DNA from: an uncultured delta proteobacterium
GTDB taxonomy: Bacteria; Myxococcota_A; Polyangia; Fen-1088
Direction of reading: 5' to 3'
Length of the DNA stretch: 64,000 nucleotides
Assembly (NCBI GenBank): GCA_963796685.1
Contig: CAWCMR010000025.1
Coordinates: forward strand, 1,056,001-1,120,000
The notes below the pieces were generated by a model that was not told the origin of the DNA, did no database searches, and worked only from the letters and a program-made list of their open reading frames with translations. Below are positions 1 to 57,646 of the stretch, piece after piece (position 1 is the stretch's first letter; every line of letters begins with the position of its first letter). Position numbers and translations under genes: made by a program.

Positions 1-105
1 GTCTTGATTGGGGGTGGACCAGGCTCTTTTGGCCGGCAAGACATGGACGTCGAGCGTGGCCTTGGAGACGTCGATACCTACGAATGTGTCAGCTGTTGGT
101 GTCAC
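1..105 (-). CDS. IS110 family transposase/recombinase, N-terminal part (continues beyond left window edge)
   Basis: Hand translation from GTG at 105: MTPTADTFVGIDVSKATLDVHVLPAKRAWSTPNQD. GIDVSK..LDV is the DEDD RuvC-like N-terminal motif of IS110; AAAGGAG just upstream. Not in the ORF track. Confidence 0.88.
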   Translation of the reverse strand, partial: MTPTADTFVGIDVSKATLDVHVLPAKRAWSTPNQD

Positions 106-137
106 GGGCTCCTTTCGCGAAGGACTTCTGCTCTTGG

Positions 138-384
138 TATGCCCAGCCTTGCGGAGTATGCGGGCTCGAGGCCCTCTCATCTGTTCGGGCTGCTTGTGAA
201 AGTCGACACGACGACCCTCGCTCACCCACGGTCTTTGTGACCTGAGGGGCATCGGTCTGTCGTGCCGTTGAATCTCGTCGTGCTCCTTCGCCTTTGGGGG
301 CGAGCGTAGCCCAGCTTTGCTGGGCGAAGCGAGGGGGGACCGGGGGACTGCGAGCGAGAGCGAGCCAGTCCCCCGTAAGATACA
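138..384 (-). ncRNA. Predicted bridge RNA (target-binding loop 207-264, donor-binding loop 141-190)
   Basis: Stem CACGAC-A-GACC/GGTC-GTCGTG encloses GATGCCCCTCA, hairpin GGTC-ACAAA-GACC and GTGGGTGAGCGAG. A second loop GCCCGA-ACAGATGAGA-GGGC..GCCC-GCATACTCCGCAAGG-CTGGGC resembles the IS621 donor loop. Transcript ends unknown. Confidence 0.75.
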
Positions 385-386
385 AG

Positions 387-625
387 GGGCTTTCCCCCCT
401 TGCCCACCCGTCCTCCTTGGATCACCCTCGCCCACCCGTCGTCCTCGGGTCCCCTCGCCCCGCGCAGCGGGGAGAGGGACAGGGTGAGGGGCTTCCCCCC
501 CTTGCCCACCCGTCCTCCTTGGATCACCCTCGCCCACCCGTCGTCCTCGGGTCCCCTCGCCCCGCGCAGCGGGGAGAGGGACAGGGTGAGGGGCTTTCCC
601 CCCCTTGCCCACCCGTCCTCCTTGG
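387..625. repeat. 102-bp tandem repeat (about 2.3 units) containing the BoxC-like palindrome
   Basis: cccctcgccccgcgcagcggggagagggacagggtgagggg starts at 451 and 553; intervening sequence also repeated. Confidence 0.9.
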
Positions 626-631
626 GCCTGT

Positions 632-994
632 TCAATCCACGTCGAAGAAGAGCGAGTCGCGCTGCTTGAGGAAGGCCTTGATGGCGTCCTTCGCCTGGAG
701 CGAAAGCTGCAGGAACTGAAGCCCCATGCCCGCCTCGCCGCCACCGCCGGGCAGCGCGGTCGAGCGCACCCAGCGCACCTCCGTGAGGGCGTCGATGGGC
801 TCGCGAGAGGTGGGCAGGGTGAGGCGCAACTGGATGCGTTCGCCCACCGGCCGAATCAGGTGGGTGGCCACGAAGAGACCGCCGCCGCTCAGATCCGAGG
901 TCAGCCCGGTGTAGAAGTTGTGCTCGCTCTCGAGGGTGACCGCCACGGCGACGGCGTAGCGAGGCTCCTGGCGTCGATCGGCGGGGGAAGTCAT
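632..994 (-). CDS. TIGR02266-type PilZ-domain protein
   Basis: RRQEPR (RxxxR) and DLSGGG (D/NxSxxG) motifs; SEHNFYTG..GGLFVAT is typical of the myxobacterial family. Confidence 0.85.
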   Translation of the reverse strand: MTSPADRRQEPRYAVAVAVTLESEHNFYTGLTSDLSGGGLFVATHLIRPVGERIQLRLTLPTSREPIDALTEVRWVRSTALPGGGGEAGMGLQFLQLSLQAKDAIKAFLKQRDSLFFDVD

Positions 995-3605: not shown

Positions 3606-3660
3606 TGCGCCACCCTTGGTTTCCGGCTAGCGTCGGGAGCCCATGCTTGGCGCCACCGCG

Positions 3661-3702
3661 GCCCCTCACCCCAACCCTCTCCCCGCTGCGCGGGGCGAGG
3701 GG
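3661..3702. repeat. BoxC-like palindrome, inverted relative to the adjacent array
   Basis: gcccctcaccccaaccctctccccgctgcgcggggcgagggg. Confidence 0.9.
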
Positions 3703-3715
3703 GTAGCTAGAGGTG

Positions 3716-4880
3716 GTCCCCTCCCCGCCGCCTCCTCCTTGGGTCCCCTCGCCCCGCGCAGCGGGGAGAGGGACAGGGTGAGAGGCAACTTCCCCCTCCC
3801 CCACCGCCTCCTCCTCGGGTCCCCTCGCCCCGCGCAGCGGGGAGAGGGACAGGGTGAGGGGCAACTTCCCCCTCCCCGCCGCCTCCTCCTTGGGTCCCCT
3901 CGCCCCGCGCAGCGGGGAGAGGGACAGGGTGAGGGGCAACTTCCCCCTCCCCGCCGCCTCCTCCTTGGGTCCCCTCGCCCCGCGCAGCGGGGAGAGGGAC
4001 AGGGTGAGGGGCAACTTCCCCTTCCCCACCGCCTCCTCCTTGGGTCCCCTCGCCCCGCGCAGCGGGGAGAGGGACAGGGTGAGGGGCAACTTCCCCTTCC
4101 CCACCGCCTCCTCCTCGGGTCCCCTCGCCCCGCGCAGCGGGGAGAGGGACAGGGTGAGGGGCAACTTCCCCCTCCCCACCGCCTCCTCCTCGGGTCCCCT
4201 CGCCCCGCGCAGCGGGGAGAGGGACAGGGTGAGGGGCAACTTCCCCCTCCCCACCGCCTCCTCCTTGGACAGGGTGAGGGGCAACTTCCCCCTCCCCGCC
4301 GCCTCCTCCTCGGGTCCCCTCGCCCCGCGCAGCGGGGAGAGGGACAGGGTGAGGGGCAACTTCCCCCTCCCCACCGCCTCCTCCTTGGGTCCCCTCGCCC
4401 CGCGCAGCGGGGAGAGGGACAGGGTGAGGGGCAACTTCCCCCTCCCCGCCGCCTCCTCCTTGGGTCCCCTCGCCCCGCGCAGCGGGGAGAGGGACAGGGT
4501 GAGGGGCAACTTCCCCCTCCCCGCCGCCTCCTCCTCGGGTCCCCTCGCCCCGCGCAGCGGGGAGAGGGACAGGGTGTGGGCAACTTCCCCCTCCCCCACC
4601 GCCTCCTCCTTGGGTCCCCTCGCCCCGCGCAGCGGGGAGAGGGACAGGGTGTGGGGCAACTTCCCCCTCCCCACCGCCTCCTCCTTGGGTCCCCTCGCCC
4701 CGCGCAGCGGGGAGAGGGACAGGGTGTGGGGCAACTTCCCCCTCCCCACCGCCTCCTCCTTGGGTCCCCTCGCCCCGCGCAGCGGGGAGAGGGACAGGGT
4801 GTGGGGCAACTTCCCCCTCCCCACCGCCTCCTCCTTGGGTCCCCTCGCCCCGCGCAGCGGGGAGAGGGACAGGGTGAGGA
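3716..4880. repeat. 75-bp tandem array of BoxC-like palindromes (15 full units plus one 45-bp unit)
   Basis: Hairpin starts at 3745, 3821, 3896, 3971, 4046, 4121, 4196, 4316, 4391, 4466, 4541, 4616, 4691, 4766, 4841. The unit at about 4265 lacks the hairpin. No unique spacers. Confidence 0.97.
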
Positions 4881-4893
4881 GCGACCTTTGAAC

Positions 4894-7431
4894 ATGCCCG
4901 CGGATCTCCCAGCCAGGGTGCCCCCTAAAAGGCGAGGCCGGGACCGCAGAAGGGACCGCGGCTCCCGCAGCGCCGCGCCCACCTTCGCGACCGCGGCCCT
5001 CCTCGGCATCCTGCTCGTCGGCGCCCCCCTCGCCCTCGGCGACGTTCACCGCCTGACCTTTCTCATCACACTCGTCGTCGCCGCGTTCCTCTCCCTTGCC
5101 ACCGCCTGGCTGGCCACCCGCTGCACCAGCAAGCTCGCCACCGTCGCGCTGGCCTTTCCTCTCTTCTTTCTCGTGGTGGCCGCCGCCCAAGTCATCCCCC
5201 TTCCCCCCGGGCTGCACGCGCTCCTCGACCCCAAGGGCTCGGCCCTGCTCGCCCTGGCCGGCCTCAAAGGAGCACAGCCGCTCAGCCTGGATCCCCCCGA
5301 AACCTACGCCGAGCTCGCCAAAGCCGCCGCGGCCTTCTGCGTGACCCTGGCCGCGCTGGTGCTTGCAAGCGGTCGTCGCCTCCACTTCGTCGCGCCGGGT
5401 TTGGTCGCCAGCGCCGGCCTTCTCGCCTTGGCCGTGGGACTCGGCCACCGCGCGGCTGCCGAGTCCATGATCTACGGCCACTTCCCAACCGGCGGCGGCC
5501 TTCCCGTCGGCCCCTTCATCAACCCCAACCACACCTCCGAATTCCTCGAGCTTCTCCGCCTTCGCCGCCCTGGCCTTCGCCTTCTCTCGCCCCAGCCGCG
5601 ACGGACAGCGCATCTGGAAGCTGCTCGCCGCGGTCCTGGCCGCCGGCGCGATCTCCACCTTGTCGCGTGGCTCCGTGCTGGCCCTGGGTGCCGGCGCCTT
5701 CGCCTGGTTCATGCTCGCCCCTCGATCGGACGAAGGCGAGCCCTTTCACCGCAGCAAATTCGTGGCCGTCCTGCTCGCCCTGGTGGTCGTGGTGGGCCTG
5801 ACCATCGGCCTCGGTGGCGACAAGATCATCGACGAGTTCCGCGGCACCGTCAGCGACAACCTATCCAAGTTCGCCCTGTCGAAAGACGCCTTGTCCATCG
5901 TGTCCGCCCATCCCGCCGGCATCGGCCTGGGCGCCTTCGCCCGCGTCTACCCCGTCTACCAAACCCTGCCGGCGACCGCCTGGTTCCAGTTCGTCGAAGA
6001 CCAACCCCTCGGCATCCTGATCGAAGCCGGCATCGCGGGCATGGCCGTTCTGCTCGGCCTATGGCTCTGGGTCGCGCGCAGGTTCTGGAAGCAGGCGCGC
6101 CGGGATCGGGTCGAAGCCTCGCTGGTGGCCGGCATGGTCGCCGTGCTCGCCCACAACATCGTCGACTTCGGGCTCGAAACCGCGGGCGTGCTGCTGCCCT
6201 TCTGCGCCCTGCTCGGCACCGTCTTCGGCAGGCAAGCCGGCGGCGCCGACGACATGGCTGCCCGCAACCGACGCCCCACCTTCTTCGCCATCGTCGGACT
6301 TTTCTCCGCCCTCGCCGGCATCCTCTTGCTGCGCAACCCTGCCGCGCGCGACTTCGACGCGCGGCTCAAGCCACCCCTGACCGCGGCCAGCCGCGCCCTC
6401 GCCCACGCCGCCTCCCTCGCCCACCCGACGGACTACGCCTATGCGCTCGCCGAGGCGCGGCTCGAGCCGAAGGCTCCACCGCCGCCAGCACCCAGACCCG
6501 CCTGCGCATGCTCAACCGGGCCATGCTGCTGTGTCCCCGCTGCGTGGGCGCGCACGAGGAAGCCGCCCGTGCGCTGTGGGGCCTCGGCCGCCGAAAGCAG
6601 TCCTTGCTGGAATGGAAAACCGTGGTCACCGAGTCGCGCCCAAGCCTGGGCCCTGTCCTCGACGGCCTCCTCGCCAGCGGCGCCAAGCCCGACGAGCTGG
6701 CCACCCTGGCCGACAACGAGAATCGATTCGCCGTCAGCCGCTACCTGCTCGCGCACGGAGCAATCGAAGCCGCCAAGAGCACCCTGAGCCAAACCCCGAA
6801 CGAAGGGGCCGAGCTGTACCTCGTCAAGGCGCAGATCGCCCTTGCCGCCAAGGACACCCAGGGGGCGCGCAAGGCCATCGAGCGTGCCCAGACCATCGAG
6901 CCGCGCGGCGCACGCGTGGCGCTGATGGCCGCGGACATCGCGCTGCTCGATCCGGAGCGCACCGACGAGGCCATGACCATCCTGCGGGCGGGCCTTCGCT
7001 TCGCGCCCACCGACGTGGAGCTGAATCGCAGGGTGCTTGCCCTGCTCATGCAGACCGACAAGTGGCAGGCCATCGATCAGGCCCTGGCCGGATTCCGCGC
7101 GGCGCTGGCCGAGGCCGGCGCACCTAGCACCGACGCGAACCTTGCCGCCGCGCGCATCTTCGAGCAGCGCGGTCAGTTCCGTCGCGCCATGTCCGAATAC
7201 CAGGCCGCCCTGGCGCAGCTTCCCGACAACATCGGCATTCGACTGGCGCTGGCCCACGACGCCGAGGAAATCGGTGGCATCACCTCGGCCGTCGACGCGT
7301 ACGACGAAGTCCTGCGGCGCGATCCGACGAATCAGCAAGCCCGCGCCGCGCTGGCCAGAATCCAGGTCGACAAGAAGCAGCTTGAAGTCGACAGCATCCT
7401 GCACGCGCACACCGGCCAGGACAACAAGTAG
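4894..7431 (+). CDS. O-antigen ligase/Wzy_C-family membrane protein with C-terminal TPR domain (compensating frameshifts near 5550 and 6475)
   Basis: Multi-TM N-terminus, FINPNH motif, then SRG..GIGLGAF..AHNIVDF in ORF 5660-6787, then TPR-like helices in the original frame. Confidence 0.75.
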   Translation: MPADLPARVPPKRRGRDRRRDRGSRSAAPTFATAALLGILLVGAPLALGDVHRLTFLITLVVAAFLSLATAWLATRCTSKLATVALAFPLFFLVVAAAQVIPLPPGLHALLDPKGSALLALAGLKGAQPLSLDPPETYAELAKAAAAFCVTLAALVLASGRRLHFVAPGLVASAGLLALAVGLGHRAAAESMIYGHFPTGGGLPVGPFINPNHTSEFLELLRLRRPGLRLLSPQPRRTAHLEAARRGPGRRRDLHLVAWLRAGPGCRRLRLVHARPSIGRRRALSPQQIRGRPARPGGRGGPDHRPRWRQDHRRVPRHRQRQPIQVRPVERRLVHRVRPSRRHRPGRLRPRLPRLPNPAGDRLVPVRRRPTPRHPDRSRHRGHGRSARPMALGRAQVLEAGAPGSGRSLAGGRHGRRARPQHRRLRARNRGRAAALLRPARHRLRQASRRRRRHGCPQPTPHLLRHRRTFLRPRRHPLAAQPCRARLRRAAQATPDRGQPRPRPRRLPRPPDGLRLCARRGAARAEGSTAASTQTRLRMLNRAMLLCPRCVGAHEEAARALWGLGRRKQSLLEWKTVVTESRPSLGPVLDGLLASGAKPDELATLADNENRFAVSRYLLAHGAIEAAKSTLSQTPNEGAELYLVKAQIALAAKDTQGARKAIERAQTIEPRGARVALMAADIALLDPERTDEAMTILRAGLRFAPTDVELNRRVLALLMQTDKWQAIDQALAGFRAALAEAGAPSTDANLAAARIFEQRGQFRRAMSEYQAALAQLPDNIGIRLALAHDAEEIGGITSAVDAYDEVLRRDPTNQQARAALARIQVDKKQLEVDSILHAHTGQDNK

Positions 7432-7528: not shown

Positions 7529-7569
7529 CTCGATGTGAAACATGTTATCGCCCATGGTACCCTTGCCCC

Positions 7570-7824
7570 ATGACCTCGATGACGGTGCGTGACATACGAC
7601 TGCACTGGCCCAAGGCCGAGAAGGCTCTGGCTGAGGGCGAGGAGATCCTCATCACCCGCGATTCCAAGCCGGTGGCTCGACTGCTGCCCCTGGTGCCGGG
7701 CGCGGGACAGAAGCGGCAACGATTCGACCCCATCGCCCACGCGCGACGAATGCAACGATTCTGGAAGAACCGGCCCTCCCAGCCCTCGACCGATGTGCTC
7801 CTGGCCAAGGACCGCGAGCAGTAG
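7570..7824 (+). CDS. Phd/YefM family antitoxin
   Basis: MTVRDIR..GEEILITRDSKPVARL; near-identical to 12178-12432. Confidence 0.85.
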   Translation: MTSMTVRDIRLHWPKAEKALAEGEEILITRDSKPVARLLPLVPGAGQKRQRFDPIAHARRMQRFWKNRPSQPSTDVLLAKDREQ

Positions 7825-7836
7825 GACGCCGAGGAA

Positions 7837-8038
7837 ATGGATCTGTACCTCGACACGAGCTGTCTTCTGAAGCTGTTCTTTCCCGAGCCCGAGAGCACCA
7901 CCGTGGCCTCGCAAGTCGCCGCAGAAGAGCATGTCGTCGTTTCCACGTTGCCTGGGCCTGCGGCGTCTGCTCACCAACGACGAGATCCAAGGCCTGGCGG
8001 CGAAAGCCCGCGGTTTCGAGGTACTACTGCCTCGTTGA
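7837..8038 (+). pseudogene. VapC/PIN toxin with internal deletion
   Basis: Matches 12445-12879 but lacks the equivalent of 12559-12791 (junction at 7950/7951), causing a frameshift. Confidence 0.88.
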
Positions 8039-8513
8039 CTCCACGGCCAATAGCGCCCCCGGCCGGAATCCGAGGCGGATCAGGAGGCACGATGATGCGC
8101 GGACCGTGTTTGGCAGCCAGCCGCTCGAAATCCGCGGGGTTCAGCGTGACGAGAGCCTCCGACCGCGACGCCTCGGCTGCGACCAGATGAAGCGCATCGA
8201 AGATGGCCCCAGAGCGCTCACCGCGCTCGGCGCAGCGACGCATGGCCTGTCGGTACAGAGCCGCGGTCATAGCCAGTGGCCGGATATGTTCGGTCAACCG
8301 CTCGACCATCAGCTCGGCCGCGCGCGCTCCGACGAGGGGAGTGACTGGAAGGCGCGTAAGGACCGACCAGGTCTCGGCCACTGCGTGCCAGGCCATGACC
8401 CCCTGGATCTCGCCATTAGCGGCTGCCTGCACCCAGTGCAAGGCCCGGGCGTGGGCCGGATGGGGCGACACGAGCGCGGGAACGAGAACGGACGTGTCGA
8501 AGCAAACCTTCAC
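7971..8513 (-). CDS. PIN-domain (VapC-like) toxin
   Basis: CFDTSVLV..E..IFDALH..LVTLN..DF; C-terminus runs on into the antisense of the neighbouring TA copy. Confidence 0.85.
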   Translation of the reverse strand: MKVCFDTSVLVPALVSPHPAHARALHWVQAAANGEIQGVMAWHAVAETWSVLTRLPVTPLVGARAAELMVERLTEHIRPLAMTAALYRQAMRRCAERGERSGAIFDALHLVAAEASRSEALVTLNPADFERLAAKHGPRIIVPPDPPRIPAGGAIGRGVNEAVVPRNRGLSPPGLGSRRW

Positions 8514-12105: not shown

Positions 12106-12177
12106 ATTCTCCAAGGCTCGAAGTTATCGGCGAAGGGCCGGTGTGAAACATGTTATCGCCCATGGTACGCTTGCCCG

Positions 12178-12432
12178 ATGACCTCGATGACGGTGCGTGA
12201 CATACGACTGCACTGGCCCAAGGCCGAGAAGGCTCTGGCTGAGGGCGAGGAGATCCTCATCACCCGCGATTCCAAGCCGGTGGCTCGGCTGCTGCCCCTG
12301 GTGCCGGGCGCGGGACAGAAGCGGCAACGATTCGACCCCATCGCCCACGCGCGACGAATGCAACGATTCTGGAAGAACCGGCCCTCCCAGCCCTCGACCG
12401 ATGTGCTCCTGGCCAAGGACCGCGACGAGTAG
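12178..12432 (+). CDS. Phd/YefM family antitoxin
   Basis: Near-identical to 7570-7824; directly upstream of intact VapC. Confidence 0.87.
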   Translation: MTSMTVRDIRLHWPKAEKALAEGEEILITRDSKPVARLLPLVPGAGQKRQRFDPIAHARRMQRFWKNRPSQPSTDVLLAKDRDE

Positions 12433-12444
12433 GACGCCGAGGAA

Positions 12445-12879
12445 ATGGGTCTGTACCTCGACACGAGCTGCCTTCTGAAGCTGTTCTTTCCCGAGCCCGA
12501 AAGCACCACCGTGGCCTCGCAGGTCGCCGCGGAAGAGCATGTCGTCGTTTCCACGTTGGCGCGCCTCGAGTTGCGGGTGCAGATCCAAGGTCGGGTCGCC
12601 GGTGGCACGCTCTCGGCCAAGTCCGCGACCGCGCTCTTGTCCGTAGTCGACCGAACGCTTGCGGAGTCTCCCTACGAAATCGCGGAGACACCCAGCAATG
12701 TCTACTCGGTCGCAGCCGCGCAACTCCTGCCCCTGGGCCGCTCCGTGCATTGCAGGACCCTGGATCGGCTGCACCTAGCAGCCATGGAAGCCCTGGGCCT
12801 GCGGCGTCTGCTCACCAACGATGAGATCCAAGGCCGGGCGGCGAAAGCCCGCGGATTCGAGGTACTACTGCCTCGTTGA
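12445..12879 (+). CDS. VapC/PIN toxin
   Basis: YLDTSCLLK..E..RTLDRLHLAA..LLTND. Confidence 0.88.
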   Translation: MGLYLDTSCLLKLFFPEPESTTVASQVAAEEHVVVSTLARLELRVQIQGRVAGGTLSAKSATALLSVVDRTLAESPYEIAETPSNVYSVAAAQLLPLGRSVHCRTLDRLHLAAMEALGLRRLLTNDEIQGRAAKARGFEVLLPR

Positions 12880-12889
12880 CTCCACGGCC

Positions 12890-13150: not shown

Positions 13151-13735
13151 CTACGGGCTCGGCGCTGCGGGAGCGTCCCACAAGGCACCGATATCAATGG
13201 CCACGGCCTCGAATGGCGGCACCCGCTTTTCGCCCTCACCGCCGAAGGTTCCGGCAACCACCAAGTCCTGCCCTGATAGCTTCAGGACCTCGATGGTGCG
13301 CGAGGCAGGGTCCACGAACCACAGCCAGGGGACACCGTGATCGCGATAGATGTCCTGCTTGCTTGTGCGATCAAGGACGGCGGTGGACGGTGAAAGGACC
13401 TCGCAAATCCAGTCCGGGCGAAGCTCGAACCACGCCGTGCTCGGGGCCTGCGGCATACGTTCGCGCAGCCAGCCGGCCAAGTCCGGGACGAGGATCTGTT
13501 CGCCCAGATGCAGCTCGGACTCGTCGATGATGAGCCAGCCACCCGGCCCGCCGCGACGACGACCGAACGCCCCACCTATCTCGACACCGAGATACGACGT
13601 CGCGATGGCGTGCGGCGGCCCGGGTCGCGGCGAAACGACCAAGTCTCCGTCGATGATTTGGCCGATCACGTTGACCGGCAACTCGAACAAATCCGCGTAA
13701 GTTGCCGGCCGCTTCTTGGGCAGTGCGAATGCCAT
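13151..13735 (-). CDS. Uma2 family endonuclease
   Basis: Same motifs as, and clearly paralogous to, 1090-1680. Confidence 0.9.
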   Translation of the reverse strand: MAFALPKKRPATYADLFELPVNVIGQIIDGDLVVSPRPGPPHAIATSYLGVEIGGAFGRRRGGPGGWLIIDESELHLGEQILVPDLAGWLRERMPQAPSTAWFELRPDWICEVLSPSTAVLDRTSKQDIYRDHGVPWLWFVDPASRTIEVLKLSGQDLVVAGTFGGEGEKRVPPFEAVAIDIGALWDAPAAPSP

Positions 13736-13741
13736 CGCACC

Positions 13742-13993
13742 CTAGAGCACCGAACGGGTTGAAAGTGCAGAGAATTCAAGAAGTTGCTACGCACGTGCCC
13801 CCTCCAATCCCCTCGCCCCGCGCAGCGGGGAGAGGGTTAGGGTGAGGGGCCAGCGCACCCTCTCGCATGGCCGAACCCCTCACCCGACGCGCTTCGCGCG
13901 TCGACCTCTCCCCGCTTCGCGGGGCGAGGTGAATTTTCCGAGCACTCGCAAGCTCTCGATTCTGCGCAGCATTCAACCCGTTCGGTGCTCTAG
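13742..13993. mobile_element. MITE with IS1182-type ends carrying two BoxC-like palindromes
   Basis: ctagagcaccgaacgggttgaa ... ttcaacccgttcggtgctctag inverted ends, same as the IS at 21629-22285. Internal palindromes at about 13809-13849 and 13876-13928. Confidence 0.8.
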
Positions 13994-53284: not shown

Positions 53285-53420
53285 CGAGCTTGCGAGGTAC
53301 TCGGAAGATTCACCTCGCCCCGCGAAGCGGGGAGAGGTCGCCGCGCGAAGCGGGGAGAGGTCGCCGCGCGAAGCGCGTCGGGTGAGGGGTTCGGCCATGC
53401 GAGAGAGTGCGCTGGCCCCT
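53285..53420. repeat. BoxC-like doublet, inverted copy of the MITE interior at about 13845-13955, interrupted at GCCCCT|CACCC
   Basis: Near-identical to the reverse complement of the 13.8-kb doublet, with an extra internal duplication. Confidence 0.85.
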
Positions 53421-53560
53421 TGTATCTTACGGGGGACTGGCTCGCTCTCGCTCGCAGTCCCCCGGTCCCCCCTCGCTTCGCCCAGCAAAGCTGGGCTACG
53501 CTCGCCCCCAAAGGCGAAGGAGCACGACGAGATTCAACGGCACGACAGACCGATGCCCCT
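53421..53560 (+). mobile_element. 140-bp orphan IS110 left end
   Basis: Reverse complement of 245-384; flanked by gctggcccct on the left and caccctagccc on the right. Confidence 0.88.
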
Positions 53561-53582
53561 CACCCTAGCCCGGGCGTCGGGC

Positions 53583-57189: not shown

Positions 57190-57236
57190 CCAGGGCCATA
57201 GTACACCAGGGCCGTTCTCCTCGCGCGAGCGAGAGA

Positions 57237-57646
57237 GCCCCTCACCCTAGCCCTCTCCCCGCTTCGCGGGGCGAGGGGACCGGAGGGGAGAACGCGCGCG
57301 CCCAGGGGCGGCGGGACCGGAGGGGAGAACGCGCGCGCCCAGGGGCGACGGGACCGGAGGGGAGAACGCGCGCGCCCAGGGGCGGCGGGACCGGAGGGGA
57401 GAACGCGCGCGCCCAGGGGCGACGGGACCGGAGGGGAGAACGCGCGCGCCCAGGGGCGACGGGACCGGAGGGGAGAACGCGCGCGCCCAGGGGCGAGGGG
57501 ACCGGAGGGGAGAACGCGCGCGCCCAGGAGCGAGGGGACCGGAGGGGAGAATGCGCGCCGGGGGGGCGGGGAAGACGGGAGGCAGACACCTGGTCCCCTC
57601 GCCCCGCGAAGCGAAGCGCAGCGGGGAGAGGGACAGGGTGAGGGGG
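57237..57646. repeat. Inverted pair of BoxC-like palindromes enclosing about 8 tandem 37-bp units
   Basis: Units start at 57281, 57318, 57355, 57392, 57429, 57466, 57503, 57540; palindromes at about 57237-57280 and 57593-57646. Confidence 0.93.

Follow-up and report, generated by a model that had tools for sequence, protein, structure and literature searches.

The stretch of DNA analyzed here (the window) comprises 64,000 nucleotides (nt) of a 2.1-Mb contig in the metagenome-assembled genome of an uncultured delta proteobacterium (genome G000; window G000:C25:1056001-1120000). It contains two pieces of the same insertion sequence (IS) of the IS110 family. A full copy of this element runs off the left edge of the window, and a 140-nt fragment of its left end, hereafter the stub, stands by itself at positions 53421-53560, ~1.1 Mb inside the contig. 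The stub is an exact reverse-complement copy of positions 245-384 and is 100% identical to nucleotides 1-140 of the 1253-bp element (IS 1-140; positions within the element are given in this form throughout). A repeat finder lists the pair as complementary arms at 243-390 and 53415-53562 (148 nt, 100%), which consist of the 140-nt element segment and the common target bases; an exact match of 140 nt excludes chance as the explanation of the identity between the stub and the IS. The stub ends on the last base of the DNA predicted to encode the left target guide (LTG) of the bridge RNA, and nearly the same endpoint is found in other left-end fragments of this element, in G000 and in a second genome.

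The stub and its parent element

The junctions of the stub were read directly from the sequence. The left one (53420|53421) reads gctggcccct|TGTATCTTAC, the right one (53560|53561) reads ...CAGACCGATGCCCCT|CACCCTAGCC, and in the full copy at the left edge of the window CAGGTCAC comes after the same CT where the stub ends. The stub sits in a GCCCCT|CACCC target that resembles a repetitive extragenic palindromic (REP) sequence. Its left flank has a nearly perfect complement at ~13.8 kb (Table 1), and the alignment shows this second repeat to be uninterrupted through GGCCCCT-CACCC, i.e., at the insertion point of the stub. The sequence-only reading, a set of annotations produced from the letters of this stretch without database searches, had described the reverse-complement copy at gctggcccct|caccct and an empty-site version of the repeat; the former proved accurate to the base, and the latter is indeed present but is a paralogous repeat of the same REP-like subfamily at a different locus from the stub.

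BLAST comparison of the region with the whole genome delimits the parent element as 1253 bp, TGTATCTTAC...ACACAGATG-CT. Seven full copies are found in G000, six of them intact and one split by a 2075-bp insertion, all 100% identical to each other. Each copy is flanked by CT (...CCCCT|IS...GATGCT|CACCC), with the CT duplicated; on the right, all seven are followed by CACCC, and on the left, six are preceded by GCCCCT and one by ACCCCT. The recombinase open reading frame (ORF) matches PF01548 (DEDD_Tnp_IS110; E = 8.6e-18) and PF02371 (Transposase_20; E = 1.6e-16), with a noncoding left end of ~280 nt upstream of the gene. No terminal inverted repeats were seen by inspection (no dedicated search was made). 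If the ends of the element were joined in a circle, TTGACT of the right end would lie 17 nt from TATCTT (IS 3-8), as judged by inspection, which would correspond to the junction-promoter layout described for the family. With its two domains, the 2-nt core at both junctions, and the bridge-RNA region in the left end, the parent is an IS110-type element, as the sequence-only reading had recognized, and an ordinary family member of the canonical 1.25-kb kind.

Identification of the guides relied on the bridge-RNA pairing rule, whereby the LTG is identical to the left target half plus the core on the top strand of the site (PMC11208160; this and the other sources cited by identifier are cited for parts of their contents). 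The covariation set consisted of this IS and three relatives, 65-69% identical to it, from other genomes of the same bacterial family. The LTG and the left target (LT) covary in the four lineages (GATGCCCCT/GCCCCT, GATCGGCCT/CCTCGGCCT, GTCAACCCT/CTAACCCT, and CCAACCCT/CAAACCCT), as do the right target guide (RTG) and the right target (RT) (GGGTGAG/CTCACCC, GGGAGAG/CTCTCCC in two cases, and GCGGGAG/CTCCCGC). The left donor guide (LDG) and the left donor (LD) pair up as ACAGATG/ACAGATG and ACAGCTT/ACAGCTT, each guide being equal to the right end of its own element, and the candidate right donor guide (RDG) changes in step with the bases at which the left end starts (GCAAG/CTTGT and GCCAG/CTGGC). 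When five sequences were folded jointly, the consensus showed two stem/internal-loop/hairpin modules with the guides in the loops; of its 31 predicted pairs, 3 are changed on both sides, and compensatory pairs occur in both outer stems. The minimum free energy fold of the single sequence pairs the LTG with the RTG and is weakly better than the folds of shuffled sequences (z = -2.0); the alignment fold was relied on instead. On the evidence of covariation and predicted structure, the assignment of GATGCCCCT as the DNA of the LTG, also made in the sequence-only reading, holds; the guide is at IS 132-140, and the stub ends on its CT core.

Table 1. Positions of the stub, its target, and the related features in the window
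Feature	Position	Strand	Basis
Stub, IS 1-140	53421-53560	+	100% identical to full copies
Predicted LTG-coding DNA GATGCCCCT (IS 132-140); core CT at 53559-53560 is the last IS homology	53552-53560	+	Guide/flank covariation in 4 lineages and consensus fold
Overlapping right-end-like 9-mer ACCGATG-CC (IS 129-137); 6/7 versus true right end ACAGATG	53549-53557	+	Fits the 3-nt-shorter joints of 7 other stubs
Left target half plus core, GCCC-CT, at left junction	53415-53420	+	GCCCCT in 6/7 full copies, ACCCCT in 1
Right target half CACCC, complementary to predicted RTG GGGTGAG	53561-53565	+	Sequence read and guide assignment
REP-like repeat, left flank of target	53338-53420	+	96% complementary to 13845-13927
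Paralogous unoccupied target GCCCCTCACCC, same REP-like subfamily	13840-13850	-	Repeat finder and alignment
Left 384 bp of full IS copy (bridge-RNA region and start of recombinase gene), off left edge of window	1-384	-	
Predicted LTG-coding DNA in full copy (IS 132-140)	245-253	-	Covariation and fold
Predicted RTG GGGTGAG in full copy (IS 158-164)	221-227	-	Covariation and fold
Predicted LDG ACAGATG in full copy (IS 201-207), same as last 7 nt of right end before CT	178-184	-	Covariation and fold

Several other features of the element and of the window deserve mention. No Rfam family reached the gathering score in window positions 1-700. A weak match to sX15, a small RNA of Xanthomonadaceae, covers positions 126-277 of the plus strand (E = 0.007; 29 bits, with the cut-off at 55). 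The match is on the other strand from the bridge-RNA region of the full copy and may be due to chance or reflect an antisense RNA. The 2075-bp insertion is a group II intron located between IS 55 and IS 56 and antisense to the IS; it is found at L002:398-2472 (G000:C25:1543397-1545471) and in L003 (G000:C11:75849-77923), interrupting one full copy and one stub. The intron starts with GTGCG and encodes a 554-aa ORF with RVT_1 and GIIM domains. There are 11 near-identical copies of it in G000, and all 10 with readable upstream sequence lie a few nucleotides downstream of a GC-rich hairpin, as is typical of class C introns.

The segment IS ~5-88 (window 53425-53508) consists of two hairpins that resemble a short repeat found alone in related genera, a likeness that goes beyond the sequence-only reading. 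Other genera of the family (G012, G020, G022, G015, G013, G018, and others; further loci include L015-L022, L054, and G012:C25:80233-80549) contain this 88-nt-like repeat in many copies, which in some cases form tandem arrays, and it is absent from Rfam at the gathering score. Its stems stay paired via changes on both sides, and the related IS L009 is without this module. The idea that the stub is a mere copy of the widespread repeat was rejected, because the stub carries the IS-specific sequence 89-140. Finally, window positions 3643-5037, 57194-57632, and 385-588 are occupied by long tandem arrays of REP-like units that carry the IS target motif GGGTGAGGGG, with periods of 75, 37, and 102 bp; the pair with the 102-bp period directly adjoins the full IS copy. 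The window also contains near-identical (98%) direct duplications 4.6-4.8 kb apart (7531-8048 versus 12139-12889) and a 579-nt pair of 72% complementary coding segments (1085-1663 versus 13162-13740).

Recurrence of the endpoint and its registers

The census used IS 85-200 as the query, with all candidates scored, against G000, G001, and G002; the latter two are of the same genus, and their IS is 99% identical. All genomes in this work are metagenome assemblies (G000 is 88.6% complete with 6.5% contamination). Full-type left ends were found in 7 copies in G000, 1 in G001, and 8 in G002. In addition, there are 23 left-end-only fragments, and 21 of these end, in alignment terms, at IS 136-142: 4 in G000 and 17 in G002, the latter comprising 16 stubs and one 5'-truncated copy. 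The remaining two end at IS 125 (G001) and at IS 106 (G000:C1). The canonical left terminus is retained in 19 of the 21 (L055 and L056 are 5' truncated). Shorter pieces (IS 1-103, 1-87, 1-79, 1-61, and 1-43) fall outside the queried region and were left out of the count. Nearly all of the stubs are in ...CCCCT|...|(C)ACCC REP-like targets at separate sites. Two of the four stubs in G000 are 100% identical to the current IS and the other two are 96-98% identical, which indicates that stubs formed both recently and earlier. In a second IS lineage, represented by G008:C108, the homology is lost exactly after the LTG core of that lineage, which differs in sequence from the one described here. The endpoint at IS 136-142 is nonrandom and recurrent, and its position suggests that the DNA coding for the guide serves the element's own recombinase as a false end built into the IS. 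The sequence-only reading is supported on this point.

At the nucleotide level, the 21 joints fall into 6 in the LTG register (GATGCCC-CT followed by the next sequence), 5 of the form GATGCC|CACCC, 2 of the form GATGC|TCACCC, and 8 idiosyncratic ones. The LTG register includes the window stub, the stub in G000:C8, two tandems of a stub with a full IS (G002:C21 and C14), a tandem of two stubs (G002:C34), and L043; C14 is at a contig edge and its left flank is nearly the same as that of C21, so these two may represent a single locus. The GATGCC|CACCC and GATGC|TCACCC joints are equal in length, 3 nt shorter than the LTG register, and differ from each other only at the second core position (C/T). 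These 7 of the 21 joints, which the sequence-only reading had not taken in, fit an overlapping right-end-like 7-mer: ACCGATG at IS 129-135 matches the true right end ACAGATG in 6 of 7 positions and is followed by CC, so the shorter joints are consistent with a second register, ACCGATG-C(C/T)-CACCC, in which a donor core CC would meet the target core CT. In terms of the guides, GATGCCC-CT matches the LTG at 9 of 9 positions and ACCGATG matches the LDG/LD pair at 6 of 7, with CC as the core. Both main joint classes occur on both alleles (G/A) of IS 109, of which A is also carried by four full copies found in other genomes and metagenomes; given that each main class includes both alleles, each probably arose more than once.

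Three fragments stand somewhat apart. L029 (G002:C23:152867-153005) has CG in place of CT at its left (GCAGCCC-CG-TGTATC) and right (GATGCCC-CG-CCCGCC) junctions, consistent with insertion at a variant target whose core would be CG. L043 (G002:C43:75155-...) is a both-ended derivative that resembles a MITE (miniature inverted-repeat transposable element), with IS 1-140 joined at the LTG core CT to IS ~1197-1253. L030 (G001:C2:825781-825953) is a further-deleted version from another species (IS 1-125 plus IS 1211-1253) and has right-end variants in common with L043.

Where a stub ends in the LTG register, its right junction (GATGCCC-CT-CACCC) agrees with the guide at 9 of 9 positions, compared to ~6 of 9 for natural targets, which means that such a junction could be hit again. 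GATGCCC-CT-TGTATC is the joint in the tandems of a stub with a full IS (G002:C21 and C14) and of two stubs (G002:C34). These tandems account for all three of the G002 stubs that are in the LTG register and have a complete 140-bp unit, each of which directly precedes another copy; the solo stubs in G002 are all core-altered. Empty targets of the ordinary 14-nt kind (GCCCCTCACCCGCC) occur 50 times in G000 and 54 times in G002. These tandems are suggestive of re-use of the stub's right junction as a target, albeit in small numbers and with a presumed order of events; they agree with the proposal in the sequence-only reading that this junction restores a usable target. Outside the stubs, GATGCCCCTCACCC occurs twice, at G000:C25:1597156 and at G000:C5:354715. 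The latter occurrence follows CAGACC and may represent the final ~20 nt of a stub that has lost its 5' part.

Origin of the stub

The stub is probably a nonautonomous left-end-only derivative whose right boundary was set by the element's own RNA-guided recombinase at the LTG-coding DNA. By construction, this DNA is a perfect copy of the left target half plus the CT core, and in this particular IS it also overlaps the 6/7 copy of the true right end. The recombinase would use this site instead of the real right end and join either IS 1-140 (in the LTG register) or IS 1-135 plus the core dinucleotide (in the right-end-like register) to the right half of a REP-like target. This could proceed through a partial circle joined at GATGCCC-CT-TGTATC or through direct strand transfer in which the second step falls on the LTG DNA and yields a product of exactly 140 bp; we infer the use in the second step of the LTG DNA, as the one other LT-like site in the vicinity, from the data on CazIS110.

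Such a recombinase step is made plausible by the published biochemistry of half-matched sites, partial circles, ISPpu9, and CazIS110. A CT core and one matching arm suffice for IS621 recombination (10.64898/2026.08.31.748434). Partial circles of IS110 elements re-use the left terminus, their internal endpoints are recurrent and are not explained by donor-guide matches, and the fragments reintegrate elsewhere (10.64898/2026.08.14.744561). In CazIS110, an abundant RNA consisting only of the target-binding loop supports the first transfer, that of the left junction to a new target, and the second step needs the full bridge RNA (10.1101/2025.10.25.684509). Excision mostly leaves the donor intact, with copy-out favored (10.64898/2026.08.31.748434; 10.1101/2025.10.25.684509). 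In the joints described above, as in an insertion, the left junction, core, and right half of the target all remain intact, and the tandem joints are of the insertion type. Most likely, the stub arrived as a copy, and deletion of a resident full copy in place is less likely; we lean toward copying because of the 16 stubs versus 8 full-type left ends in G002, the tandem of two stubs, and the published donor-intact excision. Deletion in place would give the same product as insertion of a partial copy.

A number of observations weigh against the involvement of the recombinase at the LTG site or limit its generality. In G008, only one of three fragments ends at the LTG core, the others stopping at the LTG's 5' edge and past the entire target-binding loop, and the single-copy relatives in G009, G010, and G015 are without stubs. 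An exact 23-nt pattern search returned one match in a public genome and three in metagenome contigs, all four of them full-length-type left ends, in a scan that may leave out G000 itself and its close relatives. Copies related by descent are not independent and inflate the counts. Eight of the 21 joints fit neither register cleanly and show small deletions or substitutions near the core, mostly in the more diverged copies, and short direct repeats coincide with the LTG-register joint (4 nt, CTCA) and with GATGC|TCACCC (5 nt, GATGC), so some joints could be recombinase independent. Both intact stub junctions in G000 are unoccupied, as is a natural 9/9 target, the REP variant at G000:C25:1597156. 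Furthermore, ACCGATGCC is found in identical form at IS 568-576 and CATGCCCCT, which matches the LTG at 8 of 9 positions, at IS 916-924, and no fragment ends at either; accordingly, a sequence match alone is insufficient for the choice of the site, and something else favors the LTG. Closeness to the left end, local hairpins, and action in cis during transcription of the bridge RNA are candidate factors; an effect of target-side hairpins on recognition is reported for ISPpu10 (10.64898/2026.03.19.712850) and may underlie the preference for this site. The recombinase is linked to the joints by sequence comparison and by analogy with the published biochemistry. The right-end mimic ACCGATG was also considered as the sole explanation of the endpoint and rejected, since the same 9-mer at IS 568-576 is never used.

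Taken one step further, the guide-coding DNA might be an intrinsic self-target that the recombinase uses frequently enough to spin off left-end-only mini-elements, which plant better-than-natural 9/9 landing pads and so collect further copies in tandem. Because the LTG must spell the left target half and the core, every IS110-type element would then carry a perfect half-site in its own left end. We regard this generalization as possible but hold it only tentatively.

Among the alternatives to a copy made by the recombinase, the one that fares best is a scar formed in situ, i.e., a full copy once resided at this site, and recombination between its LTG DNA and its right junction deleted IS 141-1253. 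We consider this rather unlikely. An exchange at the two CT cores would produce GATGCCC-CT-CACCC, exactly what is seen here and in G000:C8; half-match recombination is documented; the internal deletion in L043 starts at the same CT; and full copies do occupy paralogous sites of the same REP subfamily, including two in G000:C11 with the arrangement ...GCGAGAG(A/C)GTGC(G/C)CTGGCCCCT|IS|CACCCTAGCCC. However, a full copy was not found at any orthologous site. A search with the flanks of three stubs of G000 in G001, G002, and G010 (those of the first stub also in G004 and G012) showed the flanking genes to be conserved, with the intergenic REP cluster missing or different and with no IS; given that the orthologous intergenic regions of G001, G002, and G010 do not have the REP cluster, comparison of stub and full copy at orthologous sites is uninformative. 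The intermediate expected from self-insertion, in which the right end is joined to IS 141 onward, had no matches in G000, G001, or G002, using a degenerate pattern that did not cover tandems of two IS copies. The published preference for copy-out with an intact donor also argues against a scar, and the numbers of stubs in G002, one of them beside another, would require the loss of many full copies. The sequence-only reading had proposed such a self-targeting excision scar, or a MITE-forming route. The mimicry of the target by the guide DNA and a MITE-like deletion at the same CT are both borne out; the in-place origin of the stub itself is not established, and the abundance of stubs in G002 fits copying at least as well.

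Deletion without any recombinase, by slippage or microhomology repair between short repeats of the left-end site (CCGATGCCCCTCA) and the right junction (CAGATGCTCACCC), appears improbable. Deletion between the CTCA repeats would give the window joint, and deletion between the GATGC repeats would give GATGC|TCACCC, which is seen twice in G002. In contrast, GATGCC|CACCC, which is about as common as the LTG class (5 copies, on both IS 109 alleles and in two genomes), has at most 1 nt of microhomology. In addition, repeats of 4 nt at a distance of 1.1 kb make a weak substrate, the fragment of the second lineage ends at its own, different LTG core, and the tandem joints GATGCCC-CT-TGTATC are insertions in type rather than deletions.

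A further reading, very improbable, takes the 140-bp unit for an independent repeat of greater age, at whose right end a smaller element (IS 141-1253) inserted to give the apparent "full IS". The short repeat that resembles IS ~5-88 does stand alone in many related genera and many of the G002 stubs carry the older A allele at IS 109, but the independent repeats stop at IS ~88 and not at 140, L009 has the same loop without the 88-nt module, and the predicted junction promoter (-35 TTGACT/TATCTT, 17 nt) would not form if the left end began at IS 141. Moreover, pairing of IS ~119-131 with IS ~169-180 forms the outer stem of the target-binding loop and spans the 140/141 boundary, and the LTG and RTG are located on either side of it, an arrangement that is kept, with compensatory changes, in four lineages with different flanks.

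Least credible of all is an assembly artifact, that is, a collapsed or misjoined full-length IS: the locus has no spanning reads and belongs to a binned assembly with the contamination estimate given above, yet the stub is deep inside a long contig, the 21 fragments vary in their joints and flanks and come from two separate assemblies, stub-type right junctions also turn up in short contigs from other public soil runs, with loose ends after 53559 that match G002 flanks, and a collapse would not leave a precise target-restoring junction. The search for read support was uninformative either way: 24 public runs matched, the best with 35% of the sampled words, and the contigs from four of them were short and repeat derived, none spanning the locus.

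Significance and comparison with known systems

Bridge recombinases are under development as programmable genome editors, and both their half-matched action and the formation of partial circles are known from the work of 2025-26. The genomes analyzed here hold a natural record of an internal endpoint that maps to the base pair onto target-guide DNA, and this leads to a testable rule, namely, that the guide gene mimics its own target. If the rule is true, the expression cassettes for bridge RNA would be predictable off-targets in bridge editing, IS110 elements might create their own high-affinity landing pads, and the origin of noncoding satellite repeats from IS110 elements in REP-rich genomes would be accounted for. 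Validity across the whole family would also provide an explanation for the internal endpoints of IS110 partial circles, which recur but are so far undefined. Should it fail outside this lineage, the stub would still be a well-documented partial IS110 derivative.

Solo long terminal repeats (LTRs) arise by homologous recombination between long direct repeats. Like solo LTRs and one-ended IS remnants, the stubs are terminal segments left without the coding part; unlike solo LTRs, they involve no long repeat, and their endpoint is tied to 9 nt of guide-coding DNA. As with MITEs, the stubs are found in multiple copies at distinct sites with the target signature of the parent, but they lack one of the parental ends, consisting of IS 1-140 with an internal right boundary; only L043 and its deleted version L030 keep both ends. 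The stubs may be mobilized in trans by the parent enzyme, for which their predominance over full-type left ends in G002 and the tandem of two stubs provide indirect hints.

Left-end-only derivatives, partial circles, half-match recombination, and MITE-like modules have all been in print since 2025, and what seems to be new here is the identification of guide-coding DNA as the internal boundary. In full-text literature searches and in the covered sections of the papers cited here, we came across no mention of LTG-coding DNA as an endpoint of recombination; Fig. S7-S10 of 10.64898/2026.08.14.744561, which are outside these sections, could have a bearing on the point. The partial circles and fragments of IS110 elements in that study (Hu et al.) resemble the case described here in the re-use of the canonical terminus, the recurrent internal endpoint, the noncoding units in tandem beside the element, the near-identical fragments at independent sites, and the one-sided guide matches at the boundaries. 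However, that study, in the parts cited, deals with an expanded locus, scores only donor-guide (LD/RD) matches, and leaves the other internal boundaries undefined, whereas here the boundary consists of the LTG DNA plus an LD-like 7-mer and the parent is a canonical 1.25-kb element.

With respect to the half-matched sites of IS621 (Xie et al.; 10.64898/2026.08.31.748434), the LTG-coding DNA is predicted to be such a site, with a perfect left-target arm and 2 of 5 matches in the right-target arm. In that study, sites with LT only and with LT plus RT are inseparable in vivo, and the bridge-RNA gene as a half-site is absent from the sections covered. For CazIS110 (10.1101/2025.10.25.684509), direct transfer moves the left junction first and the second step is limiting; by analogy, this step could fall on an LT-like internal site in the present element, and the section covered reports no truncated products.

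A further parallel is with ISPpu9 and MITEPpu9 of Pseudomonas putida (PMC12288879), where an IS110-family element with REP targets likewise contains internal copies of its end motifs, and these internal end-box copies give rise to sub-element circles and to solo and tandem noncoding modules. MITEPpu9 carries near-copies of both IS ends (the A' and B' boxes), sits downstream of the gene for the transposase, and is dispensable for transposition. In contrast, the module in the present element is the 5' half of the bridge-RNA gene, and the guide-coding sequence itself would serve as the surrogate end.

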